A stretch of DNA of 64,000 nucleotides from Fimbriimonadales bacterium (GTDB lineage Bacteria; Armatimonadota; Fimbriimonadia; Fimbriimonadales; ATM1): assembly GCA_041744215.1 (NCBI GenBank), contig JBGTLG010000033.1:1-64000 (forward strand), written 5' to 3'. Shown in pieces: positions 1 to 64,000 of this stretch. The position numbers and the translations under genes were made by a program. Under the pieces are notes generated by a model. That model searched no databases, was not told the DNA's origin, and was given only the letters and a program-made list of their open reading frames with translations. Position 1 is the stretch's first letter. The number at the start of each line of letters is the position of its first letter.

Positions 1-196
1 CGCGTTCGAAATCGTAAAGAAGGAGGTGTTTCTTCAGAAGTTGAACTACATCCACCAAAACCCGGTCAGGCGCGGGTTGATGGCCGTAGCAGAGCAATAC
101 GAATGGTCGAGTGCAAAGATGTATCTGAATGGCGAAGTCGACTCGGATGGAGCTCTCGTCTCACGCGAACGTAGTCTCAACAGGAGGACCAGTTGA
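1..196 (+). mobile_element. C-terminal part of REP-associated tyrosine transposase (RAYT / IS200-like Y1 transposase), truncated by window edge
   Basis: Frame starting at nt 2 reads AFEIVKKEVFLQKLNYIHQNPVRRGLMAVAEQYEWSSAKMY...RRTS*; YIHxNPVRxGL and YxWSS are typical RAYT motifs. Not in ORF track. Confidence 0.85.
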
Positions 197-728
197 GACA
201 TCTGGGGATCGCGTCGTGTTTGAAGTCTGGGATGGGAAGAACGGTTTGCTCGTTGTTTCCGACTTGGATCCTTTGATGACGTACGTCGTGGATCCAAAGT
301 GGATTGTGAGTGCATCCTATCCAAGCTTGGATCGGAGCGGACAATGGGTTGTTTTCACAGGGACGAGCGACGACGGCAGGGAGGGCATATGGCGGTGTGA
401 CGTCAACGGGAAGAACCTTGAGCTGCTGTCAGATTCCGGTAAGCGGGCCGTATTTCTTGCGCATCAAGATGTGATCGCCCTCATCAATCCCGGAGAAAAG
501 GGAGAGGCGATTGTTCGACTGGCAGTCGGCGAGCGAGCCAGCAGTCGCAATGCAGCTTCAGCGCACTTTGTGACCACTATTAGTAGTTCGAATGATGGCA
601 GATCTCTTGCCTTTCAGAAGCTGGAAGGGGGTAAATGGAAGCTGTGTCTGGTCGACATGGAAACAGATCAAGTTCGGGAAGTTGACGTGGGTGAAGCTAA
701 TCTATCATGGAGTGTATACGTACGATAA
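129..728 (+). CDS. TolB/PD40-like beta-propeller protein, probably a 5'-truncated fragment
   Basis: Repeats such as PSLDRSGQWVVFT and SSNDGRSLAFQ; no signal peptide; 5' end overlaps RAYT so true start is uncertain. Confidence 0.55.
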   Translation: MAKSTRMELSSHANVVSTGGPVETSGDRVVFEVWDGKNGLLVVSDLDPLMTYVVDPKWIVSASYPSLDRSGQWVVFTGTSDDGREGIWRCDVNGKNLELLSDSGKRAVFLAHQDVIALINPGEKGEAIVRLAVGERASSRNAASAHFVTTISSSNDGRSLAFQKLEGGKWKLCLVDMETDQVREVDVGEANLSWSVYVR

Positions 729-819
729 GCATGTTGATCGTTTTGTCGCTGATTTGACAAAAGCTATCTTGCATTGTCTCTGAAACACATGAATTCAGAA
801 GTAAGTTCACTGACTACAA

Positions 820-1236
820 TGAGGTTTTCTGGAGGCCGTAAGCGGGCTCGGACGACCTTCGCCTATGACCCTCCGGGGCAACATCACTTTGAAGCATCAG
901 TAGGTGTCCAGCTAACTCACAGCCTACGACGCGGCGAACCGTCTCCCTATGGCGTTGCAGGGATCGAACCTGATGACATTCGCGTATGATGATATTGGCA
1001 GCCTGACCGAGATCATAGAAACGACGGACGCTGCGATGACGACATACGTCTATGACGACGAGAACCGATTGACTCCGGTCGAGAAGTGGGATACTTCCGG
1101 TGGAGGCGACCAACCACCGGAGACTTCGACGTATACCTACGATGGGGACGGGCTCAGGCGCCCGACGCACGAACCGGCAGCGTCGCTGACGACGTTCGTA
1201 TGGGACGGCGACGACTACTTGCAGGAGCGAACGTAA
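820..1236 (+). pseudogene. Degenerate Rhs/YD-repeat remnant (3' end of Rhs shell gene)
   Basis: RTTFAYDPPGQ in one frame, then a stop at 913-915, then TAYDAANRL...TFAYDDIGSL...YVYDDENRL...YTYDGDGLR...FVWDGDDYLQERT* in another frame. Confidence 0.8.
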
Positions 1237-2124
1237 ATGCCGGTTGTGAACTACATCGTTGCGAACGGAAGATTGATCGCGGAAAAGCGCGCAGGTTCCC
1301 GCAAGTTCTATCTGCCAGACGCGTTGGGTTCTACCCGAGCGCTTGTGAATGATTCCCAGACAAAGACAGATACGTTCACTTATTGGCCGTATGGTGAGAT
1401 CGAGGACAGAACGGGCAACACGGTGACGCCGTTTCGGTGGCTCGGAGCTGTCCCCATCTACAGCGATCACCTGTATTTTCTCAACCCTGCGTATCTGCCT
1501 CATTTGGTTGCATTCCTTGGCGGTCAAACCGCGCCTGGAGGAAGACTTACTCAACCGGAGCAAGCCGCCAAGGATGCAATCAATCGAATGCTCCAAAAGT
1601 GTGCATGGTCTCTTAGCGAGAGACACCGAAATACACTGCTCATTGCCTGGTGGTGTTTAGTCTACGGCGAAAGCAGTTTCGACTCACAACTCCTTGGCCC
1701 TTATGATCCGAATGACGTTGACCCCAGAACTGGCAAGAACCGAAAGAACGAAAGACTACGAGCTCGCGGAGCTACGCAGATCAATCAGTGGTCGCTCGAG
1801 GATTGTGCGCCACCAGAATGTAAGGACAAGATATTCGACCTAAATTGCAATATCGAGGCCGCATTCAATCTGTTCGTTTCGATGTGCAACGACCCACTTG
1901 TTCCGACTGGCCAAAAAGACCCAGTACCTCGCAATCCGCTCTCCGCCTTCCGGGGGTACTGGGAGTGCACGAGGCCAGGTTCGTCTGGGGCAAGATTCCG
2001 AAAGTGTCTTGAAGATCGAGGTGAATCCTACGAGCGGATCAAGGACGTTCCATGTCCGCCGAAGACCCGAGCTTGCCCAGGCTGTAGGACTGCTCGCCCA
2101 GTCAAGGATCGGAGTAACCTGTGA
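1237..2124 (+). CDS. Rhs-core cassette with C-terminal lytic transglycosylase (SLT/lysozyme-like) putative toxin domain
   Basis: YLPDALGST...YWPYGE...TPFRWLG Rhs core; C-terminus has GESSFD (catalytic Glu), GATQIN and NIEAA SLT-type motifs. Confidence 0.75.
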   Translation: MPVVNYIVANGRLIAEKRAGSRKFYLPDALGSTRALVNDSQTKTDTFTYWPYGEIEDRTGNTVTPFRWLGAVPIYSDHLYFLNPAYLPHLVAFLGGQTAPGGRLTQPEQAAKDAINRMLQKCAWSLSERHRNTLLIAWWCLVYGESSFDSQLLGPYDPNDVDPRTGKNRKNERLRARGATQINQWSLEDCAPPECKDKIFDLNCNIEAAFNLFVSMCNDPLVPTGQKDPVPRNPLSAFRGYWECTRPGSSGARFRKCLEDRGESYERIKDVPCPPKTRACPGCRTARPVKDRSNL

Positions 2125-3122
2125 ACACCGATAGATACGACTGGCGAAAGTCGTTGCTGGTCGTCTTGATCCTGACCATCAGTGCTTCAGCTACCGGTGA
2201 TATCGCTTGGCAGCGGCAAGCGTTCCCGATTGTCCAGGATTGGCGTACCGCACTCACAGTAGAGGACTTGCGTGGGTGGAGCGCGCGACTAATCGAGGGA
2301 GATTCGTTGTTGATCAGCCCTCCCGGTGGCGCTTCCTTCCTCGTGCCGGTCTACAATCCAGGAGGCCAAAATCCGTTTGTGGTTACCCCAGACGGCGAAC
2401 ACTTACTCCTCAGCATTAACGAGGAAATCACCTGCTTTCAGCGAAATGGCCAGCTACTTTGGACCGAGCCAGTGGAGTACTACTACAATCCTTTATCGAT
2501 GGCAGTGTCCGAAGATTATGTTGTTTATGATGAAGGATCGCTTGGTTGGGGAGTAGCATCCTCGTCCGACGAATTCTATTGGTTCTGGCTGCCAGGAGCC
2601 TACCAGTCAAAACGGATGAAGTGTAGAGAACTCAGGTCGGGAAGGGAGCTTTGGAACTTCCCAATTTTGGCAACAGGGGCAGTCTTCGCCGTGTCGAAGT
2701 ATCATGTGCTATTCCTTCGACCTCGCAGTCCAGAGACCTATGAAGATTACTTGAGCTTTACTCAACCGGATCGATGGAATTACGTGCCCCACTACCTTGA
2801 TGTCAGAAGCGCCCTGACGGGCAAACTTCTAGCTTCATGGTTGTTGCCGGGTTCTGGCTGTTCCATCGCACAAAAGTTGTTCCTAGAGGAGGGCACATGC
2901 CGATCAACTATGGATGGATTCCACATCTGTGCCACCAACGGGGCGCCTTGCAACCAAACGTGCGTCGCAAGGGACTACTGCGAACTGAAAATGATCGGCG
3001 ACAGACCAGAGGCAAGCATCTGGGTTGACGATAAGCGTTTTGCGTTGTCCCTCATATGGTTGCACCAACGTAGTTCATCGGCGGCGGGTGGCCCGCCCGA
3101 CCAAGGAAAGAAAACGGAGTGA
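2121..3122 (+). CDS. Secreted PQQ-like beta-propeller protein, putative Rhs immunity protein
   Basis: N-terminal signal peptide; xGxLLW repeats (RNGQLLW, RSGRELW, LTGKLLASW); GTGA overlap with toxin gene. Confidence 0.55.
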   Translation: MNTDRYDWRKSLLVVLILTISASATGDIAWQRQAFPIVQDWRTALTVEDLRGWSARLIEGDSLLISPPGGASFLVPVYNPGGQNPFVVTPDGEHLLLSINEEITCFQRNGQLLWTEPVEYYYNPLSMAVSEDYVVYDEGSLGWGVASSSDEFYWFWLPGAYQSKRMKCRELRSGRELWNFPILATGAVFAVSKYHVLFLRPRSPETYEDYLSFTQPDRWNYVPHYLDVRSALTGKLLASWLLPGSGCSIAQKLFLEEGTCRSTMDGFHICATNGAPCNQTCVARDYCELKMIGDRPEASIWVDDKRFALSLIWLHQRSSSAAGGPPDQGKKTE

Positions 3123-3419
3123 AAGAACACGCAGCGGGAACAATGCTGGGTGCCATTGGTGATGCGAGAAATTAATGACACTCGACCCACCCCAGCTTCC
3201 CCATCACCATTGAAACGACGAGGCGCCGGGCAAGGTACATTGAGAAGTCCGATGTTCGCATACCGCAACTCCAAGACTGTTGGGACACCGCCGGACCAGA
3301 CCGAAACTCCACCGGGCCACCCGCCGCACGAGCTATCGGCGCCTGACGGGGCCACCAGCCGGTCTAGGAAAGCCCCGCTACACCGTGATATGGCGAGGTG
3401 TGTGATATAGTCTCTCTCC

Positions 3420-3752
3420 ATGGAATGCGCTTTTTTCGTTCCGATCCTGGAAGGCAAGACCGAGGCCGCGCGTGAGTTCGCGGCAAAAATGATGGAGAAC
3501 GGCGGCGAGCGGTTCAGTCAGGCCAACACGACCGTCACCAAGGAGAGTTGGTTCCTGCAGAAGACTCCGATGGGCGACTTTCTGATCGTCTACTCTCAGT
3601 CCCCCGACGCCAATCAGGTCATGAAGAACCTAGCCGAAGCCCAGGACCCCCTTGACGTCTGGTTCAAGGAGCAGGTGCTCGAACTGACGGGCTTCGATTG
3701 CAACGTGCCGATCGGCGACCTCCCCGAACAGGTCGCCGCGTGGGAGCGGTAG
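3420..3752 (+). CDS. Small conserved hypothetical protein (DUF6176-like / dimeric alpha-beta barrel)
   Basis: PILEGKTEAAREFA...ESWFLQ.TP.GD...DVWFKEQV...TG pattern; TG-TATAGT box upstream. Confidence 0.65.
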   Translation: MECAFFVPILEGKTEAAREFAAKMMENGGERFSQANTTVTKESWFLQKTPMGDFLIVYSQSPDANQVMKNLAEAQDPLDVWFKEQVLELTGFDCNVPIGDLPEQVAAWER

Positions 3753-3867
3753 GCCGACGGGGCGGGCCGCCAACGGGTTCCGACGGCAGTGTGGAGGGAC
3801 AGGCGGCGGGCACGGGCTCTCGTTTGTCTTACGCTCGGTGCCCCCGTGCGCCACTGACCGATCCGCC

Positions 3868-4095
3868 CGCAATCTCACAACAGGTTGAAGGTTGAAGGTT
3901 GACTTTCGGCTCCCCAAAGTCTTAACAAACGGAACTCTTGTAAACGAAAGAGGGCGCCCGAACCCCTCGCAACACCGCACCCAACCCATCCGGTGAACTC
4001 GAGAAACCGCGTTAACAATATTAGAACGTGATGAGTTCGATGAGTTCAGTGAGTTTGATGAGTCGTTAACAATTCGGAGACAGCCAGGTCAACCA
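3868..4095 (+). repeat. Dispersed ~220-bp non-coding element, copy 1
   Basis: Homologous to reverse complement of 62781-62993; AGGTTGA x3 (3882-3902); four 9-bp units (4030-4065) between GTTAAC boxes at 4011 and 4065. Confidence 0.9.
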
Positions 4096-4121
4096 GTAGC
4101 CGCCGGTTCAAACTCGGCAAA

Positions 4122-4973
4122 TCACTCCGCAGCCTGCCAGTCGCCCCCGTCGCGGTCGTGCCAGTTGCGAACATCGCCAGTCTCGCGTGCAGATCTGAGT
4201 GCGGCGAAGTCGATCACGGCGACCGCGATGCCCTCCTCGTCGGGCGCAGTCTCTGCGAGCAAACCGTCTTCGGGAAACGGCTCAATGCAGGGCGCAAGGA
4301 TCGCGCTGGACCCGACCGCGCTAGGCACCGGCTCACGCCCGAGTGATCCGACCAGTGACGAGTGAACAACAAAGATTTGGTTTTCGATTGCCCGCGCATT
4401 GCAAGCCTTTCGCACGCGATGAAAGCCGTGCATCGTCTCGGTAAATGCGGGAACGCACTGCAAAAGGACACCGCGCTCCGCGAGGATTCGACTCGACTCG
4501 GGAAACTCGCAGTCGTAGCAGATGGTAACGCCGATGCGAGGATCAGAGAATCGCGTCAAGCCGGCGCCTGGCGACAGCCGCCACACATCGCGTTCGTATG
4601 AAGTGAGCTTGACTTTTGGCTGGCGACCTGCGAACAGACCGCCGTTGTGATACACATCGCAAACGTTTTGGTATCTATCACCAAACTTGACGATGTGGGA
4701 GCCCAGGACAACCCAGATAGGGTAATCCTCCAACTCCTCAGCGAACAAGTCGCCGAGGCCCGCCGCGGCCGAAGCCAAGATCTCTGGGACCTCGGCTTCA
4801 GAATAGTCGTGTGCAGCGAGCAGCTCGATGTTGAAGTTCTCGGGGAACACCGCGACCTGCGCACCAGCGTCGACCACCTGCGCGAGCACCTGCGAGAAGT
4901 GATCGCGAAAGTCCGCCAGCGAAGATGCGGGTCGGATCTTCCAGTTGACGGCAGCGACGGTCAGGGTGTCCAT
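4122..4973 (-). CDS. Carbon-nitrogen hydrolase (nitrilase superfamily)
   Basis: VFPE, QPKVKLT, ICYDCEFPE triad motifs; ARAIENQ. Confidence 0.92.
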   Translation of the reverse strand: MDTLTVAAVNWKIRPASSLADFRDHFSQVLAQVVDAGAQVAVFPENFNIELLAAHDYSEAEVPEILASAAAGLGDLFAEELEDYPIWVVLGSHIVKFGDRYQNVCDVYHNGGLFAGRQPKVKLTSYERDVWRLSPGAGLTRFSDPRIGVTICYDCEFPESSRILAERGVLLQCVPAFTETMHGFHRVRKACNARAIENQIFVVHSSLVGSLGREPVPSAVGSSAILAPCIEPFPEDGLLAETAPDEEGIAVAVIDFAALRSARETGDVRNWHDRDGGDWQAAE

Positions 4974-5118
4974 TCGAGCATTGCGGCGGCGTCGCCGGAT
5001 TCCTCGTCATCCATGGTGCCGGTCGCAACGCCCGCGCATATCATCCCATATCGGAGCAGCGGGGTGAGGGTTCGGTCGATTGCATCGCCATTGGGATAAA
5101 CTCCTCGTCCAGCCGCAC

Positions 5119-6246
5119 ATGATTTCATTGAGAGGAACCCCTTGGGCCCGCCCTATCGCGGGATGCGCGATCTTGCTCGCCGTCGTTGCCAGCCAGACCG
5201 TCTCGTCGCCCCCGAAGGACGATGCCGTCAAGGACGCGACGCTCGCGTATATGCGGGAAGCGGGCGTGGTTGGCTGTGCGGTCGCGATTGCCGAGAAGGG
5301 CAAGCTCGTTTTCTCCTCCGGCTTCGGGTTTGCCGACCTCGAGAATCCTGCGGAGGCCCGGCCCCAGACCTTGTTCCGGCTCGCCTCGATCAGCAAGCCG
5401 ATCACGGCGGTAGCCGTGATGAGGCTGGTTGAGCGGGGGCAGGTCGACTTGAAGGCGGATATTCGCACTTACGTCCCGGAGTTTCCGGACAAGGGGCATA
5501 AGATCAGCGTCGAGCAAGTTCTGAATCACACTTCGGGAATCAGACACTACAAAGGCGATGAGTTTGCCAGCACGAAGCGATACGAATCCGTTTCGGATTC
5601 GCTGAAAATTTTTCAGGACGATCCGCTATTGCACCCTCCGGGCGAGTCTTACACCTACACGACTTACGGCTACACGCTGCTCGCGCGGCTGATTGAAAAC
5701 GTGAGCGGCAAATCATTTCCCGATTTCTTGAACGAAGAAGTTTTTGTTCGTGCGAACATGTACGCCAGCAAGATCGACGATGCGACTGCGATCATCCCCA
5801 ATCGCGCGAAGGGTTACCGCGCTGGGCCAGATAACAAAGCGATCAATTCGAGCTTTGCGGATACGAGTTACAAGTGGGCTGGAGGAGGGATGCTTTCGAC
5901 CGCACCCGACATGGCCCGGTTTGGGGTTTCGCTGTTGAACGGAACCTTGCTAAAGCGGGATTCCGTGGCGCGCATGTGGACAACGTCTTCGCTTCCAGAC
6001 GCAAGGATAACGAGGTACGGGTTAGGCTTCCACGTCAACCAACTTGAAGGAAGGCGGATGATCAGTCACACAGGATCGCAGCAAGGCGCACAAACAGCGA
6101 TGCTGATCTTTCCTGATCATGATGTTGTGATCGTCGTCCTCACAAACTACGAGAATCATCGCGCGATGGACTTAGCGCGCCGCATCGCCGAAGCGTGGCT
6201 CGGTATCGACGCGAAGGCACCCCTCGCCGGGGCCGTGGGCAACTAA
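5119..6246 (+). CDS. Serine hydrolase, beta-lactamase class C/AmpC-like, secreted
   Basis: FRLASISK (SxxK), LNHTSGI, YTTYGY, HTG; signal peptide; start uncertain. Confidence 0.9.
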   Translation: MISLRGTPWARPIAGCAILLAVVASQTVSSPPKDDAVKDATLAYMREAGVVGCAVAIAEKGKLVFSSGFGFADLENPAEARPQTLFRLASISKPITAVAVMRLVERGQVDLKADIRTYVPEFPDKGHKISVEQVLNHTSGIRHYKGDEFASTKRYESVSDSLKIFQDDPLLHPPGESYTYTTYGYTLLARLIENVSGKSFPDFLNEEVFVRANMYASKIDDATAIIPNRAKGYRAGPDNKAINSSFADTSYKWAGGGMLSTAPDMARFGVSLLNGTLLKRDSVARMWTTSSLPDARITRYGLGFHVNQLEGRRMISHTGSQQGAQTAMLIFPDHDVVIVVLTNYENHRAMDLARRIAEAWLGIDAKAPLAGAVGN

Positions 6247-7127
6247 GCTGGGTTAGGAACGAAGTCTCCACCTCGGCAGGATTTGAGATAGTTTAGAGAA
6301 GAAACTTGCCCAGTCATTTCGAGTTCGTCGCGATAGACAGGATCGTGCCAGCCCTCGATATCAATCGCGCCGACAAAGCCGCCTTTGCGGAGAATCGAGA
6401 TGATGTCGGCCCAGTTTGAATCGCCGAATCCTGGTGTGCGGTGCCAAACCGTCGATATGCCGGAGCGTAATCCTTCTGACTCGATAATGTCCCAGTTGAT
6501 CGTCGCGTCTTTCCCGTGAATGTGATAGATTCGATCTACCCACTTTCGGAGTTGCGGAATTGGTTCGATCAAGGAAACCATTTGGTGACACGGCTCCCAC
6601 TCCAACCCCAACGTGTCTCCTGGCACTTCGTTGAACATCATTTCCCACGCACGAGGTGCATGCGCGATGTTCCAACGAGGTCTCTCCCAACTGCCGCCCA
6701 TATCGCAGTTTTCGAAGGCGATCTTTACACCTTCTCCATCTGCCACTTCAGCAAGATGTCCAAACACCTCTTTGAACTTCGGCATACTCTCGGGGAGCGG
6801 CCTGTCTTCGAGCGCACCTGCGAAGCCGCAAACGACATTACAACCGAACAGCTTTGTTTTTTGTATCAGCGTCTCCCAATCCTTCGCCGTTTGCTCATCT
6901 TGCAGCGGATTTCCATAAATGCCGACACTGCTGATGACCGCGTCGTCACCGATTGCGTCGAGGGCCTGCTTGGCGAGAGCGTCTAGATCGATATCGCCTA
7001 TGTATTGCCACAGGGTCAGTTGGAAGGACTCAAAGCCGTGGGGCAGGATTTGCTCAAGGTACTTCGCACCGAGGTTCATTCCGGCCAACGTGCCGATTCG
7101 GATGTCTTGGTGGTTGTCGCGGGACAT
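6243..7127 (-). CDS. Sugar phosphate isomerase/epimerase (xylose isomerase-like TIM barrel)
   Basis: IAFENC, EWEPCH, HIHGKD, PGFGDSNW, IDIEGWHD. Confidence 0.9.
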   Translation of the reverse strand: MSRDNHQDIRIGTLAGMNLGAKYLEQILPHGFESFQLTLWQYIGDIDLDALAKQALDAIGDDAVISSVGIYGNPLQDEQTAKDWETLIQKTKLFGCNVVCGFAGALEDRPLPESMPKFKEVFGHLAEVADGEGVKIAFENCDMGGSWERPRWNIAHAPRAWEMMFNEVPGDTLGLEWEPCHQMVSLIEPIPQLRKWVDRIYHIHGKDATINWDIIESEGLRSGISTVWHRTPGFGDSNWADIISILRKGGFVGAIDIEGWHDPVYRDELEMTGQVSSLNYLKSCRGGDFVPNPA

Positions 7128-7175
7128 AGATTGGCGAGGTTACCTCCCAGCGGAAGGGGCATAATGGCCGCTCCA

Positions 7176-7982
7176 ATGAGCTTCACCGACCGATATCGAA
7201 TCTCTCCTGCCGAAGCCACAGATCTGACCTCGTTCGCCACGGATGACGACGGCGGATTCGAGCAAAAGGCCACTCAGGAGGCTACGAAGGCGCTGGTCGA
7301 CCGGATGGTCGAGCTGCAGGAACTGATGTACGCAGAAGGCAAGCACTCGCTGATGATCGTATTGCAGGCGATGGACGCTGCTGGCAAGGACAGCGTGATT
7401 CGAAACGTGTTTGGTCCAGTGAACGCTCAAGGGCTCAACGTCGCCTCATTCAAGGCCCCCACCCCTATCGAGTTGGCACATGATTATCTTTGGCGAGTGC
7501 ACGCTGTCACTCCTCGAAAAGGGACCATCACCGTTTTCAACCGCTCGCATTATGAAGATGTCCTCGTCGTTCGCGTGAGAGGGCTCGCGCCTGAATCCGT
7601 TTGGTCGAAGCGGTACGACCACATCAATGACTTTGAGAGACTGCTGAACGATGAAGGCACGCACATCTTGAAATTCCATCTACACATCTCGCCCGAGTAC
7701 CAGAAGCGGCAGTTTAGGGAGCGTCTCGAGGACCCGAAGAAGCACTGGAAGTTCAACCCTAAGGATCTCGACGATCGAGCGCTCTGGGGTGAGTTTCAAA
7801 AGGCGTATGAGGTTGCGCTGTCACGTTGCTCTACATCGTACGCGCCGTGGTACGTGGTTCCGGCGGAGCGGAAGTGGTTTAGGAACCACCTGATTACGTC
7901 CGTTGTGGTTGAATTCCTCGAGTCCCTCGACATGAAGTATCCGACTCCCGAGTTTGATCCGTCCAGCTTCGTGTTCGATTAG
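7176..7982 (+). CDS. ppk2: Polyphosphate kinase 2 family
   Basis: LQAMDAAGKD Walker A, FNRSHYEDV, HDYLWR, APWYVVPA. Confidence 0.95.
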   Translation: MSFTDRYRISPAEATDLTSFATDDDGGFEQKATQEATKALVDRMVELQELMYAEGKHSLMIVLQAMDAAGKDSVIRNVFGPVNAQGLNVASFKAPTPIELAHDYLWRVHAVTPRKGTITVFNRSHYEDVLVVRVRGLAPESVWSKRYDHINDFERLLNDEGTHILKFHLHISPEYQKRQFRERLEDPKKHWKFNPKDLDDRALWGEFQKAYEVALSRCSTSYAPWYVVPAERKWFRNHLITSVVVEFLESLDMKYPTPEFDPSSFVFD

Positions 7983-8123
7983 GTCTTCCCCCAGAGCAAC
8001 CGCCCTGGTTCAGGTTTCTGCTGAAACAAAGTTGGATCCTCGCCCGTACTGCTCTATAATGGAAGGTAACCGGGCATCCTGCCCGGCAACCGACAGGCAA
8101 CCAGAATTCGGGGGGTATCCCAG

Positions 8124-8486
8124 ATGCGCCTTCTGATAGTCAACAACCACTCGGGCGAGGAAATCCTAAAGGAATCCAATTGGCCCGGAGAACTGCCCCG
8201 CGTTGGAGACATTATGGAACTCCATAGCGGCCCTGCTCAACGGTACAAGGTTGAGGAGGTCGATTGGGTGTTTGAGGATTCACCCGAGGAAGTCCACGAA
8301 GATATACCGCTGAAATACGCGAAAATCTTGGTGAGCATTCTCAATGGTACGTCACCCACATCCTCAGGACCCATCGGGGCGACTGAGCTTTGCAAGTGTG
8401 GTCACCGCGCGGAGATCCACACAGCTGTAGGGTGCAAGGGCCGCGGCGGCTATTGCGAATGCAAGGGCTTCGTCGCGCACGACTAA
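8124..8486 (+). CDS. Hypothetical protein with C-terminal Cys/His metal-binding motif
   Basis: LPRVGD SH3-like N-terminus; CKCGH-x3-H-x4-C-x6-CECKGF. Confidence 0.65.
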   Translation: MRLLIVNNHSGEEILKESNWPGELPRVGDIMELHSGPAQRYKVEEVDWVFEDSPEEVHEDIPLKYAKILVSILNGTSPTSSGPIGATELCKCGHRAEIHTAVGCKGRGGYCECKGFVAHD

Positions 8487-8493
8487 CGGCAGC

Positions 8494-9609
8494 TCACTGT
8501 ATCGCAGCACTTCGGTAATCGTCGCCTGCGAACGAACCTTGAGGCATAACAACTTTTGCCAGCGGGTCGCGCGCTTCGACGATCGCAATGACGATCCTGA
8601 AGACACCTGCAGGCGGGTTCGGTGTGCCCGGTGACGATCCCCACGCGTCGCACACGGCGAGTGCGCGAAACTCTTGGATTGACTCTGCGTTGACAACGAT
8701 TCGCCCTTCGATCTTCCCGCGGATTCCGCGGTCGCCTTGGTCCGTTCTTGAATCGAATGTGCCTGAGAACTGGATGGTGTTAGCAGAAACTTTGTTCGAT
8801 TCGAATTGAAATTCGCGAACTTCTTCGCGCAGCCAATGTTCTGGCAATCCGCGGACATTGTCGACCATGTGATAACGGATGAGTCGGCCGATTACGCTAT
8901 CGGGAATTCGGCTGTTCTCGATGATCTCCTTTTGCTCGTCCGCGTAGATCCAGAAATGATCGCGGCCTGGTGCGCCATTGACAGCGGGCGAGCCCGCAGG
9001 AAGCGGTGTGATTCGTGAGTGTGACCGCGCAACGAAGACGTCGCTCGGTAGTTGACGAACCGGTGCGCCAGCTTCGATGACCGACTCAATCGGCGGCAAC
9101 TTCCGGTAACCGTCCAGCCCGCGCGCAAGGAAAGCGGCGAGATTCTCGGATGTGCGATTCGGGTCGAACGCATAGGCGGTGCCGTCGTAGGCACATATGT
9201 ACACCCCTGCTGATCCGAACCCTTGTATGAAACGCTGATTCAGGAGCTCTGCTACTTTGACGAACCACCGCGACGCGTCGGTGCGGCCGTGCTCCACTTG
9301 ATCCGTAACGATCAGCACGGGAATGAGCTCTCGCTCGAGTGCATCAAGGAGAACGGGATCTGACATGTTTGCTGTGCGTTCTTCGATGGCAGCATTGCAA
9401 TCGTCGCAGGATGGCTGGCCAGGGGTAACCCAAAGCAGCAATGGCTTCCCTTCCCGTTTCGCTTCGCTTCTCGCGGCAGATAAATCAAGTCGCCACTCGA
9501 CATCGGCCCACCGCATCTCCTGAGGAGTGGGCACGAGATCGCGCATTCGATCATCGAGCGTGTCAGCTGACAGCGCGGCTATTGCGAGGATAGAGAACGA
9601 GAGAATCAA
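8494..9609 (-). CDS. Secreted thioredoxin-like (CxxC) hypothetical protein
   Basis: Signal peptide; WRLDLSAARSEAKREGKPLLLWV...CDDC. Confidence 0.7.
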   Translation of the reverse strand: MILSFSILAIAALSADTLDDRMRDLVPTPQEMRWADVEWRLDLSAARSEAKREGKPLLLWVTPGQPSCDDCNAAIEERTANMSDPVLLDALERELIPVLIVTDQVEHGRTDASRWFVKVAELLNQRFIQGFGSAGVYICAYDGTAYAFDPNRTSENLAAFLARGLDGYRKLPPIESVIEAGAPVRQLPSDVFVARSHSRITPLPAGSPAVNGAPGRDHFWIYADEQKEIIENSRIPDSVIGRLIRYHMVDNVRGLPEHWLREEVREFQFESNKVSANTIQFSGTFDSRTDQGDRGIRGKIEGRIVVNAESIQEFRALAVCDAWGSSPGTPNPPAGVFRIVIAIVEARDPLAKVVMPQGSFAGDDYRSAAIQ

Positions 9610-9656
9610 GCGCGTATTCTATCGACGATACGTGAGCGTCTCAAAGTTCCAGTGCT

Positions 9657-11627
9657 TTACTCCATGACGAGCTTGCACGCTGAGACGACGCGTTCTGTAT
9701 CTGGCAGCGCGGCGTATTCATAGATCGGATTGAAACCGATGTGGACGTCGCCCTTAGACACCAGCTGCGGGGGCGAGATGAACGAACCCCAAGAATCTGG
9801 ATCGGACGTTAGCGATTGGATGATCATCTGCCCCACGCTGCAGGTGACTGTGTCTTCCTGGACGACGACAAGTCTGCCGGTCTTTTCGATCGATTTCGCG
9901 ACTGTCTCGCGATCCCAAGGCACAATCGAGCGCAAGTCGATGACCTCGCACGACACTTCACCGTCAAGCTGGTCCGCCGCCTCTGATGCTTGCTCGGTAC
10001 AGTTGCCCCACGCGACGATGGTGAGATCGGTTCCTTCTCGCATGACGTGCGCTTCGGCGAAACCGATCGCAGGGATCTCTTCCGGCACATCCATGTTCAT
10101 TCTGAAAAGGTGTTTTGGAATCAAAAACACGGTCGGGTCTTCGCTCTTTAGTGCAGTCCACATCATCGCGGCCGCGTCTTGCGGGTTGCTTGGGATCATG
10201 ACCCTAATGCCCGGGAAATGGGCGATGGCGGCCTCGTTCGCCTGACTGTGCCAGAGCGAACCGCCGGGAAGGTATGCGCCATAGGGCGCATAGATCAAAG
10301 CAGGACAAGGCCATTCGCCGAAAGTTCTCCAGCGAATCGTCGCAATATTGTTCACGAGTTGACTCCATCCTGGTCCGACAAAGTCGATGAACTGCAACTC
10401 GAAAACTGGGCGCATTCCATAGCAAGCCAATCCGCACGCAACGCCGACAATCGTAGCTTCTGCGAGGGGCGAGTTGAAAACGCGATCCGGAAACGCAGTT
10501 GAGAGTCCGTCAGTCAGTTTGAACACGCCGCCCTTCGGGTCTTCAATGTCTTCACCAAAGAAGACAATTCGCTTGTCTCGATCCAGCGCCACTTTGAAAA
10601 CATGATTCAGCGCGTCGACCATGCGCCATTTTCTGCCGCCATCGATGGGTGGCGGCTCCGGTGTCGGAAGATCGCCATACATTTCCTTAAACAACTCGTC
10701 TGGGCGTGGATCGGGCGAGTTTTCCGCCTCGATGTAGTCCTTATCGACGAGTTCCTTTATCTCGTCTTGAACCGCTCCCCACTCTTTCTCTGTCAGTTCC
10801 CCAGCTTTGATTAGCTCTTGCGCAACCACGACGATGGGGTCGCGCTTCATCATCGCGTCGATATCATCTTGCGTTCGATACACTCTATGATCATCGCTGC
10901 TTGTGTGACTGCTCAGACGGTCGAGTTCACACCACAGGATTGTCGGCCCACCACCGGTTCGCGCTTTCGCAACCGCGTCGCCTGCAGCGGAAAAGACCTT
11001 GTCTGGGTGGCGCGCATCGACCCGAACGAGGTCTTGCGATCCGAGCGCGCCGAGTTCGTAAGGGTTGAACTTTTCTGTCGGCGTGCTGATTCCGAACTTG
11101 TTATCTTCCATCACGAAGATGCACGGGAGTCTCTCTTGCATCGCAAAGGCGATCGCTTCGTACACTTCCCCTTGTCTGCTCGCTGCATCTCCAAAGGTAG
11201 CTACAGAGACGCTATCCTTTCCTTCGAGTTGCATGCCCCACGCAGCACCGACTGCTGGCAACAGGTTTCCGGCTGTTGGAGTTGGCACGCTCCATACATT
11301 CTTTTCGCGGTTGGAGTAGTGGCCTGGCATCTGCCGACCGCCGCTGCTGCTGTTTCGCTTTGCGAAGTAAGCGTAGGCTAGCTCCAGATTCGTCATGCCC
11401 TTTTGGAGCATCAGCGCCCGATCTCTATAGTACGGGAAGATGTAATCGTCGTCGCGCAGGTGCAGGACGAGCGCTGCGAGCGCTTCGTGGCCCATGCCCG
11501 AAACCTGGAACCATCCCTTTGACTGTCGCAAGAGGACGCCTTCTCGGCGGTCACCCTCGCGGCTGAGGAACATCAGCTTTAGGAATTCGAGCTTATTGTA
11601 GGTCTTGTCGGCACGAAGTGTCGCCAT
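9657..11627 (-). CDS. 2-oxoacid (probably branched-chain) dehydrogenase E1, fused alpha+beta
   Basis: GHEA, FGDAAS...DNKFGIS TPP-binding motif, HTSSDD, FNSPLAE, HSQ, VIDLRS. Confidence 0.95.
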   Translation of the reverse strand: MATLRADKTYNKLEFLKLMFLSREGDRREGVLLRQSKGWFQVSGMGHEALAALVLHLRDDDYIFPYYRDRALMLQKGMTNLELAYAYFAKRNSSSGGRQMPGHYSNREKNVWSVPTPTAGNLLPAVGAAWGMQLEGKDSVSVATFGDAASRQGEVYEAIAFAMQERLPCIFVMEDNKFGISTPTEKFNPYELGALGSQDLVRVDARHPDKVFSAAGDAVAKARTGGGPTILWCELDRLSSHTSSDDHRVYRTQDDIDAMMKRDPIVVVAQELIKAGELTEKEWGAVQDEIKELVDKDYIEAENSPDPRPDELFKEMYGDLPTPEPPPIDGGRKWRMVDALNHVFKVALDRDKRIVFFGEDIEDPKGGVFKLTDGLSTAFPDRVFNSPLAEATIVGVACGLACYGMRPVFELQFIDFVGPGWSQLVNNIATIRWRTFGEWPCPALIYAPYGAYLPGGSLWHSQANEAAIAHFPGIRVMIPSNPQDAAAMMWTALKSEDPTVFLIPKHLFRMNMDVPEEIPAIGFAEAHVMREGTDLTIVAWGNCTEQASEAADQLDGEVSCEVIDLRSIVPWDRETVAKSIEKTGRLVVVQEDTVTCSVGQMIIQSLTSDPDSWGSFISPPQLVSKGDVHIGFNPIYEYAALPDTERVVSACKLVME

Positions 11628-11722
11628 AGGAGAATTGAACCTCGCCATTGAAGTTCGGGCGGCTTGCCCGGAGCGGCGGGATGATACCCCTACCCCCAAC
11701 GGCGACGGCTGGAGTTCGGAGC

Positions 11723-12397
11723 CTACGGCCTGCTGGCGATGAACTCTTTCCAGAGGTCTTCGACCTGTTTCCCGGTCAGTTTGGCGAAGACTGGCATTGG
11801 ATCTTCCGCTTTTCTGAGCGCAAGATCAAGCGCGGGGACTAGCCTCATGTCGTAGCGCCTCGAGACCCACGCGAGAAAGTACGCGGTGGTTCGATAGGAG
11901 TCTGTGTGCTTCGCTTTCTCGTAGACGATTCGCGGGCGCGGAGCTTCGGGCTCGTATCGCCACCACCTTATGTAATCGGCTATTCCTTCGACCAGCCAAC
12001 CAGGTTTATTGGCGTTGCGCGGATATTGCTGTACAACATGAACTAGCTCATGGATCACCATGCCAAGATCGTCTGGTCGATCGGTAATCCACTTACCGTT
12101 AATCGTGATCGTGCTACCCGACGCAAACGCTGGAGCGTTGGCCGTTGGTAGTATGCGGATTCGAATCTGCTCAGGCACCTTGTAGTCCTGGGTTGAAAGC
12201 ATCGACGTCACGATCGGGAACCATTTTTCGACGAGGGCTTTTGCCGCTTCGCCCCATGCTTTCGATTCTGGGAACTCGGCTACGTCGAGCACGACCGGCG
12301 GGGTCTCGAGTTGTCTTGCGAGCGGATAGATGTGCCGATCGAGGTCGGATGTCGTGCCCACGATGGGGAGCAGGGCGACGGCGATCAGGACGTTCAT
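11723..12397 (-). CDS. Basic secretory protein (BSP) family metallopeptidase
   Basis: HELVHVVQ, PGWLVEGIADYIR; signal peptide. Confidence 0.9.
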   Translation of the reverse strand: MNVLIAVALLPIVGTTSDLDRHIYPLARQLETPPVVLDVAEFPESKAWGEAAKALVEKWFPIVTSMLSTQDYKVPEQIRIRILPTANAPAFASGSTITINGKWITDRPDDLGMVIHELVHVVQQYPRNANKPGWLVEGIADYIRWWRYEPEAPRPRIVYEKAKHTDSYRTTAYFLAWVSRRYDMRLVPALDLALRKAEDPMPVFAKLTGKQVEDLWKEFIASRP

Positions 12398-32800: not shown

Positions 32801-32811
32801 GAGTCTCGGTG

Positions 32812-32906
32812 CTCCGCTTTCCTACGCCGGTTTGAACCGGATCAGGTTCCGAGGGTCTTCCGGTCAAGCCGGAACTCTCAGCCCACACAGGGCTCCCCTA
32901 GCGGGA
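32812..32906 (-). ncRNA. TPP (THI-box) riboswitch
   Basis: Minus strand CCCGCTAGGGGAGCCC-TGTGT-GGGCTGAGA-GTTCCGGCTTGACCGGAA-GACCCTCGGAACCTGATCCGGTTCAAACCGGCGTAGGAAAGCGG: CUGAGA, GAACCUGA, P5 and GCGUAGG core, P1 CCGCT/AGCGG. Confidence 0.95.
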
Positions 32907-33040
32907 ACGGCGCCTTGGCGCTTAGGTCTATTCTACTCCTATTCAGAAGGCGGGGTTCGGGAAGGTCGCTCACACAAGCCGGTCGAGCAGGCATTAATAC
33001 GGGTTTTCGTCAGCCACCTGCCGAAAGACGGGCTCGGCTG

Positions 33041-48185: not shown

Positions 48186-48262
48186 TGGTAGCGGAGGTCG
48201 GACTCGAACCGACGACCCTGCGGGTATGAACCGCATGCTCTAACCAGCTGAGCTACTCCGCC
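48186..48262 (-). tRNA. tRNA-Met (CAT), elongator type
   Basis: GGCGGAGTAGCTCAGCTGGTTAGAGCATGCGGTTCATACCCGCAGGGTCGTCGGTTCGAGTCCGACCTCCGCTACCA cloverleaf, 77 nt, CCA end. Confidence 0.96.
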
Positions 48263-59979: not shown

Positions 59980-61526
59980 GCGTATCGCCAATCAGGTTGA
60001 CAAAGACAAACTTCACCGCAGGTTTGCAGTGTGAAAAGCGACTATACTTCGAGAAGTATCGCAAAGAGCTACGCGTGATCACAGCGGCGGATCAACTTCG
60101 GTTCGACGAAGGAAACGAAGTAGGGCGCCTCGCTCAGAAGTTGTTTCCTAACGGTGCTTTGGTCAACGTTCCAGCATGGGATCCAGCCGGTGCGGAGGAG
60201 CGCACTCGTCAGCTGATCGATAGCGGTAAGAACACGTTGTTTGAATCGGCGTTCGGTGTTGGAAGGCTCTCGGTTCGAGTTGATGTGTTGCGACGCGAAG
60301 CATCGACGGACGGCGCCCAGGGCTCACTCTTCGATTCTCCTTCGGGCGGCTGGGAAGTCATCGAAGTGAAGTCTGGCACCTCACCTCGCGACGGAAAAGA
60401 CCCGAAGCCAGAGTACTTGATTGATGTCGCATTCCAAGTTTATGTTTTGCGTCAGGCAGGAGAACAAGTCGACCGGGCGAGCTTGCTCCTTCTCAACCGT
60501 GACTTCATCCATCAAGGCGTCGCCCCTTCGACAGCTGAACTCTTCGAGAAGGTAGACGTGACAGATCTCGTCGAAGATCTGGTCCCAACCATCAGCGCAG
60601 ATGTCGAGCGGATGGTGGCGATTCTCGACGCAGGCTCGGAACCTCCCATCGAGATCGGCCCCCAGTGCGATGACCCGTACCACTGTCCGTTTTACGACCA
60701 TTGCCACCCGACTCCGCTGCCGATCGACCACCTTATGAACCTCCCCCGGATCGATATGAACCAGTACCGACTTCTTCGAGGGGCGGGAATCGAACGAATC
60801 CAGGACATCCCCGACAGCATGATTAAGCATTCGACCCAGGACATGGTCCGGGAGGCGTTGCGGACTGGCAAGCGGCGAATCGACACGGCGATGGCGGAGG
60901 AGTTCGACAAAGTGAGGTTCCCCATCCACTTCGTGGACTTTGAAACCGCGCAGTACGCGCTGCCGAGGCACGTCGCGACCGGCCCGTATGACTTCTTGCC
61001 AGTGCAGTGGTCGAATCACGTTCTCGACGAAAGCGGAAACTTGTCGCACGACGAATTCATCTACGTCGGCTTTGGCGATCCAAGGCCAGAGTTCATCGAG
61101 AGCCTGTCTCGCACGGTTAACGGCGCGGGCTCAATCGTCGTTTACTCGAACTTCGAAGAGCAGCGGTTAAGAGACTTGCTATCGTTCGACGAATCCTCCG
61201 CAAAGCCATTGTACGAATTCTTCTCTGATCGCGTCGTCGATTTGCTGAAGATCATTCGCGCTTACGTCTACTACCCGGAATTCTGCGGAAGCTTCAGCAT
61301 CAAACGGGTTCTTCCTGCGATGGTTCCTTCCTTGTCTTACGCCGGACTGAATATCCAGCAAGGTGAAATGGCAACAACGATGTACCGCAAGATGATTGAT
61401 CCTAAATGCCCGCCAAACGAGCGGGAGCAGATACGAAGAGACCTTCTTGAGTATTGCAAGCTCGATACGCTGGCGATGGTAGAGCTGTATAAAGAGTTGC
61501 GACGGCTCATAATGGAAGAGAGATGA
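59970..61526 (+). CDS. DUF2779 protein (RecB/Cas4-like nuclease + RNase H-like domain)
   Basis: [12 protein letters not shown]...[41 protein letters not shown]. Confidence 0.88.
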
Positions 61527-62704
61527 TTCAGCTTCCGCCCGACGCGAAAGGCCGCTTTGGTGACTACGGCGGCAGGTATGTGCCTGAAACGCTTGTGCCA
61601 GCGCTCGATGAGCTTTCGGCGACCTTCGAGCAGGCCTGGGAAGATTCAGGGTTTCAGGAAGAGCTGGCCTGGCACTACAAGCACACCGTCGGCAGGCCGA
61701 CGCCGATTACGCCCGCCAGGCGGCTTGGGGAGGAGTTCGGGTGCGAGGTCTTCATTAAGCGGGAGGATTTGTGTCACACCGGCGCCCATAAGTTGAACAA
61801 TGCGATCGGGCAGGCGCTTCTGGCGGTTCGGATGGGGAAGCGGCGGATCATCGCCGAGACGGGCGCGGGGCAGCACGGGGTCGCGACGGCGACGGCTTGT
61901 GCAATGTTCGGGCTCGGGTGCGTGGTCTACATGGGTTCGGAGGACGTCGAGCGACAGAAGATCAACGTGTTTCGTATGCGGTTGCTCGGCGCGGAAGTGA
62001 TTCCGGTGACGAGCGGTACGAAGACGCTCAAAGATGCAACGAACGAAGCGATGCGCGATTGGGTTACAAACGTTCGCGACACTCATTACATCGTCGGTTC
62101 ATGCGTCGGGCCGCATCCTTATCCGGTTATGGTCCGGCAGTTTCAGCGCGTTATCGGTGACGAAGCGCGCGCGCAAATGCTTGAGCATCCTGGACGCTTG
62201 CCTGACGTTGCAATCGCTTGCGTCGGCGGAGGCTCGAACGCAATCGGTTTCTTTCACGCGTTTCTTCCTGATGCAAGCGTTCGGCTGGTCGGCGCGGAGG
62301 CGGGCGGACACGGCCTCGAGTCCGGCGAGCACGCTGCGCCATTAACCGCGGGGTCACCGGGCGTTTTGCACGGATCGTTTTCTTATCTTATGCAAGACGA
62401 GGACGGGCAGGTTGTCGGAACGCATTCCGTTTCTGCCGGATTGGACTATCCGGGAGTCGGACCTGAACATTCTTTTTTGAAGGACACGGGCCGTGCGGAA
62501 TATCATGCCGTGACCGACGAAGAGGCTTTGGACGCCTTTGTTTGGCTTTCCCGGCTCGAAGGGATCATTCCCGCTTTCGAGTGCGCTCACGCGTTTGCTT
62601 TGCTTAAGAAGCTCGACATTAAGGCCGGATCGACGGTGTTGGTCAACCTGAGCGGGCGGGGGGACAAGGACATGGAGTCCGCTTCGAAGCTGCTCAAGCT
62701 TTGA
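61523..62704 (+). CDS. trpB: Tryptophan synthase beta chain
   Basis: [42 protein letters not shown]. Confidence 0.98.
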
Positions 62705-62780: not shown

Positions 62781-62993
62781 TGGTTGACGCCGGAATGTTA
62801 ACGACTCATCAGACTCACTAGACTCACTGGACTCATCGAACTCATCACTGTTTGTTATTGTTAACGGGACTGTTTGAACTCATCGGCTCGGCAGAGTTTG
62901 CGGCTTACGTGTCGTTAGCTCAATCGTTCGGATGCAGGAACTCTGCCGGTTAAGTCTTGAGAGGGCCGAAAGTCAACCTGTTGTGAGATTGCG
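62781..62993 (-). repeat. Dispersed ~220-bp non-coding element, copy 2 (inverted)
   Basis: Five 9-bp units (62802-62846) between GTTAAC boxes at 62797 and 62860; ends GCCGAAAGTCAACCTGTTGTGAGATTGCG, the reverse complement of copy 1 start. Confidence 0.9.
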
Positions 62994-63093
62994 ATTCAGG
63001 AGGTTGTTGAAGAATCTGTCAGTGCTACCCGGTCGGTTTCCGACGAGCCCCGCATTGCCGCCGATGCAGGCTGCACCCGGTAAACGTCAACTC

Positions 63094-63366
63094 CTAACCT
63101 TCGACCAATTCAAATTCGCGACCGATTTCGTCGCCATAAACGTCGATCTGCTCGCCGGACACCGGCTCGCGACACTTGTAGACGTACCCGCAAATCCTCG
63201 ATTGCCCGTCTACGACTCTCACAAACACCATCCGCCCTTCGCACAATCCCACGTAGCCGCCCCTTTCGTAGACGGTGACCTGAACACCGTCGGACACACG
63301 CCTAAACTGCGTGCCAACTGAGTACTCGGGTATGCCGAGTTTCGCGCGTTCTTCATCGAGGTCCAT
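63094..63366 (-). CDS. Hypothetical protein
   Basis: ORF MDLDEERAKLGIPEY... fills the gap divergent from the methyltransferase; no motif recognised. Confidence 0.45.
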   Translation of the reverse strand: MDLDEERAKLGIPEYSVGTQFRRVSDGVQVTVYERGGYVGLCEGRMVFVRVVDGQSRICGYVYKCREPVSGEQIDVYGDEIGREFELVEG

Positions 63367-63432
63367 TGCTGCGACAATTATGCACTTTCCGGTCGCGTCG
63401 CGGAGCGATGCAGAGCGAGTACAATCGACCCG

Positions 63433-64000
63433 ATGGGCGAGGGTTGGATCAACCAGCTTCACTATGGCGATAACCTCGAAGTCATGCGGGAGAAGATCCC
63501 GGATGAAGTCGCGGACCTCGTCTACCTCGACCCGCCGTTTAACTCACAGCGGAACTACAACGTCTTATTCAAACAGGTGAAGGGCGATCCGGCTCCGGCG
63601 CAGATTATGGCGTTCGAGGACACTTGGCGATGGAGCCCTATGCTCTACGACGAGTTTATGGAAGACGGGCGCAACGCCAAACTCTTCGACCTCGTGCAGA
63701 GCCTCTACCAAATCTTGGGCGATTCCGAGATGATGGCGTATGTCGTCATGATGGCGCCGCGATTGCTCGAACTTCATCGCAAGCTCAAACCAACGGGCTC
63801 GCTTTACCTGCATTGCGATCCGGTCGCAAGCCACTATCTGAAGATTCTGCTCGACGTTATCTTCGAGCCTCAAAACTTTCGGAATGAGATTACATGGAAG
63901 CGACAGAGCGCCCACAGCGACGCGAAACTCAAGTTTCCTGATGTTGCGGACGTCATCTTGTTCTATTCGAAGAGCAGCCAGACGAAATTCGCGCCCGTGT
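63433..64000 (+). CDS. Site-specific DNA methyltransferase (N6/N4, beta class), runs off window
   Basis: MGEGWINQLHYGDNLEVM...DLVYLDPPFNS...LKPTGSLYLHCD...FRNEITWKR; not in ORF track. Confidence 0.93.
   Translation, partial: MGEGWINQLHYGDNLEVMREKIPDEVADLVYLDPPFNSQRNYNVLFKQVKGDPAPAQIMAFEDTWRWSPMLYDEFMEDGRNAKLFDLVQSLYQILGDSEMMAYVVMMAPRLLELHRKLKPTGSLYLHCDPVASHYLKILLDVIFEPQNFRNEITWKRQSAHSDAKLKFPDVADVILFYSKSSQTKFAPV

Follow-up and report, generated by a model that had tools for sequence, protein, structure and literature searches.

The stretch of DNA analysed here (the window, 64,000 nucleotides of a Fimbriimonadales genome available as a 2.68-Mb draft, G000) carries two look-alike elements, copies A and B, whose positions and surroundings are collected in Table 1. 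We confirmed that the two resemble each other, with 68% identity over 202 aligned columns and an E value of 8e-12 in a search against the genome. All conserved blocks listed in the preliminary description are present in both copies, and its counts of a 9-mer array, four units in copy A and five in copy B, hold as well. The AGGTTGA triplication that it reported is genuine, a Logan contig of run X1 spanning 176-12000 without differences, and it is confined to copy A among the copies of the family. Both copies lie between convergent genes (DUF6176 and nitrilase for A, trpB and a 91-aa orphan for B), and accessory DNA was found on the sides described, with a RAYT 3' fragment near A and an N6/N4 methyltransferase gene starting at 63433 near B.

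Two of the earlier claims have to be corrected. Copies A and B do not form a special inverted pair, being two of 29 dispersed elements of ~198 bp, and a family of this size led us to reject an inversion switch acting on such a pair. Likewise, CAATCTCACAAC had been taken as an end of the element, while the conserved boundary is GGTTGAC, at 3897 in copy A and 62978 in copy B.

Table 1. Positions of copies A and B and of the features around them in the window.
Feature	Positions	Strand	Remarks
Copy A, variable left slot	1..3836	.	Cut by contig start; RAYT 3' fragment (11-151), Rhs-like tail pieces, orphans, DUF6176
REP hairpin remnant (second type), left of copy A	3837..3868	+	Hairpins of this kind flank RAYT genes in the congeneric genome G001
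AGGTTGA triplication	3882..3902	+	Copy A only
Copy A, core, 198 bp	3897..4094	+	GGTTGAC to GTCAACC; apparent mini-derivative of the helicase cassette; orthologous element in G001 adjoins the nitrilase gene
Left block GGTTGAC-N17-CTTAA	3897..3925	+	Same motif as upstream of the helicase start codon; putatively promoter-like
GCGTTAACAAT, four 9-mer units (4028-4063), second CGTTAACA	4009..4071	+	Matches 3' end of the helicase gene; candidate binding boxes
trpB	61523..62704	+	Short skew arm to the right of copy B lies in this gene; residual -0.23 (element strand, fourfold-degenerate sites)
Copy B, core, 197 bp	62782..62978	-	Five-unit array 62804-62848
Half of REP hairpin module H, left of copy B	62988..63035	-	
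Copy B, variable left slot, start	63036..64000	.	Orphan, N6/N4 methyltransferase, then GHKL ATPase; ~7.5 kb, extends past the window

The Rhs-like tail pieces in the slot of copy A were read from the sequence and are without a Pfam match, and window positions 1-4152 have no match in G001 or in a further genome, G002. The RAYT 3' fragment (window 1-201) occurs as a short contig at ~8x the surrounding depth and is thus a multi-copy repeat that breaks the assembly. A TPP riboswitch (32802-32909) and a tRNA-Met (48186-48262) are the only Rfam matches of the window. The sequencing runs that contain this DNA are mostly hot-spring metagenomes.

A profile search of G000 with nhmmer returned 30 matches: 28 with both ends, one truncated at a contig end, and one that corresponds to a helicase gene's tail. 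Looser motif scans of the genome gave no further copies. The 28 full cores run from GGTTGAC to GTCAA[CG] and 23 of them measure 189-200 bp. Columns invariant across 19 copies comprise GGTTGAC, GTTAACAA and the first array units, with drifting spacers between them. Even the oldest copies, at 47-60% identity to their nearest neighbour copy, keep the blocks and their spacing. A coding role for the mini-elements was rejected, since the array variation, judged by eye, is not codon-like.

The helicase gene whose tail was recovered (C15:92189-93370) is present in a single copy and belongs to what we consider the parent cassette (C15:92153-93372), which consists of a GGTTGAC motif 36 bp before the start codon, a gene for a 393-aa AAA_25 protein and, within its last codons, GTTAACAAT and the array. 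Each element joins the left end of this cassette (GTTGAC-N17-19-CTTAA) to the array tail, the gene body being missing; the right end GTCAA[CG] is absent from the parent.

The 393-aa protein is a predicted primase-less replicative helicase. It has an AAA_25 domain (E 5e-30), and its structural model (pLDDT 88) places a winged helix at the C-terminus. In a fold search DnaB came first, and the top 11 included Twinkle and RSF1010 RepA; RecA and KaiC scored nearly as well. A sequence search of the PDB with the single protein gave no match. Walker A, the catalytic Glu and Walker B are conserved across 53 relatives. A Prim-Pol domain is present in 11 of the 15 long relatives scanned and absent from the 393-aa protein, which suggests that the short form has lost its primase. 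The family occurs in 39 of 201 genomes of the order, with 179 cluster representatives passing 1e-30, and viral contigs gave distant partial matches only (14 loci at 26-36%). GTTGAC lies upstream of the gene at 25 of 29 primase-less loci; in G006 (L127) a GTTGAC-N18-CCTA motif sits inside the helicase 3' end, not upstream of the gene.

The same arrangement recurs in related genomes, each with its own array. Seven other gene-carrying genomes contain 6-27 matches to a helicase tail, the sequence of which is lineage-specific (G006 17, G046 27, G072 23, G030 26, G021 6 and G093 6, query loci counted); the unpublished genome G011 enters the tallies only. In the congeneric G001, which we used for flank and orthologue comparison, the helicase ends in a GTGACG array, and this pattern is found 23 times there (once as the helicase tail), once in G002, in which the helicase gene was not found, and never in G000. 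GTTGAC lies 100-128 bp upstream in 20 of the 23 G001 array matches, a spacing as in G000. It also precedes 14 of 20 matches in G046 and 16 of 19 in G030, where some copies retain the start codon of the gene. From the left motif and the tail at the mini-elements, together with these start codons, we conclude that, to judge from sequence, the mini-elements are internal deletions of the local helicase cassette. In G000, G001 and G006 the replication gene ends in direct repeats; the tails in G046 and G030 are dispersed and have other repeat forms. Direct DNA searches recovered neither the core (40 relatives) nor the G000 array pattern (60 relatives); a species-specific repeat was nevertheless rejected, as homologues exist with rewritten arrays. 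The one match of a wider contig search fell in unrelated AT-rich sequence and looks like chance.

The preliminary description had raised the possibility of a mobile non-autonomous element, and the origin of the copies as internal-deletion derivatives of a gene-bearing cassette agrees with it. Of the hallmarks of such an element, terminal inverted repeats are present: the ends GGTTGAC/GTCAA[CG], found in 28 of 30 matches, extend over 7 bp only. Flanking repeats are of 0-2 bp in 24 of 28 cores, and AACA in the other four is part of the conserved left flank, so that no target-site duplication was seen. There is no transposase with matching ends, the parent encoding AAA_25 and a winged helix, and only one other GGTTGAC/GTCAACC pair of <400 bp exists in G000. 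Among the assembled contigs compared, no empty site was detected. G000 has three tyrosine recombinases, and neither its XerD-like gene nor its phage-type integrase adjoins a copy.

A second component accompanies many of the elements. A hairpin module, module H, lies ~125 bp to the left in many young copies and is absent from most old ones. In G001, inverted copies of module H flank a RAYT frame, and we therefore regard it as a REP that is separable from the core. By the definition of REP/RAYT, a hairpin flanking a Y1 RAYT gene, only module H belongs to such a system, the core being no tagged palindrome; the RAYT of G000 itself, on C18, has a different REP. Since REP hairpins are found left of copies in three genomes (G000, G001 and G006), RAYT may move or target the mini-elements.

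The DNA left of the elements is variable. At five loci, DNA searches showed that 4.7-7.5 kb left of the element are unshared with G001, host genes resuming on both sides. When 20 mini-elements of G001 were compared with G000, the left flank matched in 4 of the 18 with sequence (unshared in 14 of 18), against 17 of 20 for the right flank. These slots contain methyltransferases and restriction-modification genes as well as genes for a TIR and an Rhs protein, for HNH and Schlafen-type proteins and for a transposase. In G001 the aspartate-kinase site is occupied instead by a Cas9-Cas1-Cas2 operon (read from the sequence). A fixed 5-kb cargo was rejected, with slots of 1.5-7.5 kb and none at the G001 parent. 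A codon-score proxy comparing left with right was not significant (12 of 19, p 0.077). The idea of a gene-capture site with iterated boxes thus stands as far as the boxes and the orientation toward accessory DNA are concerned, and capture by the element itself remains putative. Left and right flanks of copies often map to different places in G000 and G001, which may reflect rearrangement at repeats or misassembly of the draft genomes.

The elements are accompanied by a strand-specific compositional footprint. We measured skew at fourfold-degenerate sites corrected for gene strand and give its sign on the element strand, negative meaning A/C-rich. In G000, the interval from -9.5 to -4 kb left of the element has a negative skew at all 19 testable sites (of 30, parent included); the pooled left skew is -0.20 against a null of -0.017 +/- 0.021, a value that none of 2000 random placements and none of 2000 orientation shuffles attained. 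Both GC skew and TA skew are negative there, as in GRINS-type tracts. Blind tests on raw composition gave negative left sides at 19 of 20 loci in G046 and 18 of 19 in G030 (the best distinct non-parent matches out of 27 and 26, respectively), with 13 of 20 and 10 of 19 in far-right controls. On the right, a short arm of the same sign stays negative to ~+1.3 kb and is followed by about +0.05, with no sign flip at the element; copy A shows no skew on its right, and on its left the sequence stops after 3.9 kb. The tract of the parent is ~40 kb long. A fixed far edge near 9.4 kb, as headful packaging would leave, was rejected, since the profile decays gradually.

The left tract is stronger in older, more diverged copies (rho 0.59, n 18, p 0.01), and the right arm shows no such dependence (rho 0.27, p 0.17). 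The left tract is negative at 21 of 26 primase-less helicase loci versus 2 of 8 for the long form. Over the gene itself the sign is opposite at 3 of 29 primase-less loci, namely L135 and L185 (G095) and L177 (G180), where a reversed, G/T-rich skew over the helicase gene comes without a left tract. The tracts cover different single genes.

Starting from the skew rather than from the elements, we find that of the 20 strongest tracts in G000 only 8 are accompanied by an element at the predicted position, no more than 6 kb away; none has one nearby in the opposite-sign arrangement. Several element-less G000 tracts (C4, C35, C39, C24, C26, C16 and C30) fall where G001 has an element. The skew of a tract on C6 is absent from its G001 orthologues. 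Net changes of this tract relative to G001 on the element strand are 123 G>A, 98 T>C, 97 G>C and 41 T>A, a rough measure at 70% identity; the net G>C and T>A indicate that deamination transitions alone do not account for it. Opposite-sign pairs of tracts face each other across ~6-kb gaps at C6:8892-20128, C30:84649-95592 and C40:29238-41484 of G000, with no element found there; at the site of the C30 pair, G001 has an element.

At a larger scale, a proxy that counts third-position runs has a median of 200 per Mb in 15 gene-carrying genomes of genus g11 versus 47 in 27 genomes without the gene, a comparison whose significance is overstated by the non-independence of kin. Order-wide, the proxy fails to tell genomes that have the helicase from those that lack it: three genomes of genus g14 that have no helicase-family match (G087, G091 and G107) reach very high A/C run counts of 1779-2707, against 136 in G000, and another cause of skew may exist. 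A jagged GC skew has been remarked in Fimbriimonas, the remark coming without an explanation (PMC4072686).

Considering these results together, we propose, with a probability of roughly 60%, that the element is a cut-down copy of the helicase cassette that acts as an extra one-way replication origin, from which unwinding by the helicase would proceed leftwards, one strand being left exposed. One intact helicase gene elsewhere would supply the protein for all copies. Its winged-helix domain may bind the repeat array, and its RecA-fold domain, loaded there, would move 5'-3' along the bottom strand, that is, leftwards. SF4 helicases in general have a known unwinding polarity. AAA_25-type phage proteins are described as able to unwind 5'-3' (PMC8965321). 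As the helicase would operate without a primase of its own, the bottom strand would stay single-stranded and be damaged at C and A. Exposed single strands are expected to gain G and T. The bottom strand would in this way become G/T-rich, which is the sign observed. Finally, exposed or over-replicated DNA might favour insertion and exchange in the left flank and so turn it into a hotspot. Contig depths are flat (16.8 over the parent, 17.9 over the window), and depth at the level of contigs shows nothing on amplification either way.

Several of the results above weigh against this proposal, namely the reversed sign over the gene at 3 of 29 primase-less loci, the strong G000 tracts that have no element in the expected position, the order-wide failure of the proxy, the missing right-hand skew of copy A, the lack of a link between element age and the right arm, the net G>C and T>A, the closeness of RecA and KaiC in the fold search and the non-significant codon score. 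Against a simple origin in particular, the skew keeps its sign across the element. A right arm of the same sign fits a plain origin poorly and fits transfer and recombination better, which makes transfer the main rival. Here the element would resemble a chromosomal oriT, serving as a polar site of transfer or processing, and one strand, which starts ~1 kb to the right of the element, spans the cargo and extends for several kb into host genes, would be exported or taken up single-stranded and recombined by both arms, which the skew would mark. This would account for a short right and a long left arm of equal sign, for cargo between the arms that is unskewed and turns over, and for the flanks reshuffled at elements between G000 and G001. 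Against it, the cassette has no relaxase or nicking domain, and the relatives of its protein are Prim-Pol replication proteins. We consider it an unlikely alternative, and one that can be compatible with mini-origins if the helicase makes the transferred strand.

Far less probable is that the elements are inert MITE- or REP-like repeats that landed passively in variable and skewed regions which already existed. The 7-bp inverted ends on most copies, the REP hairpins left of many young ones and the many skew tracts without an element would fit such repeats. The conservation of blocks and spacing among copies whose spacers have diverged to 47-60% identity would not, nor would the lack of a target duplication. 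Moreover, four elements of G001 share right flank and orientation with a G000 copy, the copy A/nitrilase site included, and carry the array rewritten to the local type. The skew also behaves unlike a pre-existing property of the regions, since it grows with element age, is absent from the G001 orthologues of the C6 tract, and is found in G000 at several element-less places where G001 still has the element.

The least probable account takes the elements as portable promoters, regulator binding sites or small RNA genes, with skew caused by transcription: the left block resembles a -35 element and is placed 8-12 bp ahead of the helicase start codon, and copy A folds with a z of -2.0, but the genes neighbouring copies face either direction, the skew tracks element orientation and not gene direction, rightward transcription would leave the wrong strand exposed and tracts 5-40 kb upstream unexplained, and the structured ncRNA of the preliminary description finds no support in 0 of 12 predicted pairs with compensatory change (19 of 28 copies), a consensus energy of -1.5 kcal/mol, the lack of a conserved hairpin in the core, a z of -0.8 for copy B and the lack of an Rfam match at either copy.

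The proposed one-way mini-origins share traits with several known systems. MITEs and REP/RAYT systems (REPtrons) are short, multi-copy, non-coding and deletion-derived. The elements are so too, and a RAYT-flanking REP hairpin lies on the left of many copies; they differ in that the parent encodes a helicase-like protein and not a transposase, in the lack of a target duplication, and in the REP being a separable add-on. In Bartonella, a run-off replication origin is found with BaGTA, and a phage-derived helicase is kept in the chromosome at or near this extra origin, in a high-plasticity zone of adaptive genes (PMC2697382), a layout like that proposed here. Bartonella is described, however, as having one origin, with bidirectional amplification seen by microarray and DNA packaged in 14-kb pieces (PMC2697382), whereas the genomes analysed here have 6-29 gene-less copies each and a one-sided footprint, and amplification was not observed in them.

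IncQ plasmids (RSF1010) combine a RepA-type helicase, iterons, a displaced strand that is single-stranded, and gene-less satellite plasmids that borrow proteins (PMC6925257). A helicase (predicted in our case), repeats and deletion derivatives that keep the origin are common to both. On the other hand, IncQ replicons are plasmids described with a separate RepB primase and a RepC iteron-binding protein (PMC6925257), while our element is chromosomal, has neither primase nor RepC, and fuses the winged helix to the helicase. For pRN1, the Prim-Pol/helicase replication protein ORF904 is reported with an origin just 3' of its gene, in a 100-nt stem-loop (PMC4234260). The array likewise lies at the 3' end of the gene here, and the long relatives have Prim-Pol, AAA_25 and HTH domains; unlike pRN1, the short form has lost Prim-Pol and the element is without a conserved fold.

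GRINS are local and intense G/T versus A/C skew tracts inside coding genes, described as having no known cause (PMC8256042). They are repeated, gene-converted tracts (PMC8256042), whereas those found here are single-copy, extend over several kb and are polarised by a cis element and a candidate enzyme. Horizontal transfer hotspots without mobile elements show rapid gene turnover between core genes with no integrase (PMC5635113); the abstract of that report names neither an oriented cis element nor a strand-specific footprint.

A broader reading, which we put forward tentatively and at somewhat under even odds, is that a domesticated or selfish system in Fimbriimonadales uses one primase-less helicase to fire dozens of dispersed one-way mini-origins, each of which would expose a single DNA strand, mutates their neighbours directionally and keeps a slot of strain-swapped defence genes. 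If true, it would be a programmed gene-exchange hotspot and the first named cause of GRINS-like skew tracts, and it would link three open observations, namely turnover hotspots without mobile elements, intense local skews and extra bacterial origins, to one cis element and one enzyme. It also provides a predictive rule, by which the helicase tail locates the sites and the orientation of each tells on which side and strand the mutation tract lies; in two genomes the rule held blind. A helicase and a 200-bp site that mutate one strand over kilobases could moreover be a natural tool for targeted mutagenesis. A search of largely open-access papers found no description of this system. We consider it real and apparently undescribed, with an anatomy and a footprint that are well supported at the level of sequence and a mechanism that is a proposal.

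Some further sequences with similar ends or motifs were noticed. A 79-bp element with perfect 8-bp GGTTGAC-type inverted ends lies between REP and mini-element in G001 (L085:2427-2505, also L086 and L088) and has no match in G000. In the trpB-clpC variable region of G001 (L072:7418-7606), in the slot orthologous to copy B, 189 bp are bounded by GGTTGAC/GTCAACC around an unrelated interior, again with no match in G000. At L024:1374-1452, six TTAAC-like motifs are packed between a XerD-like gene and a prepilin-type gene.
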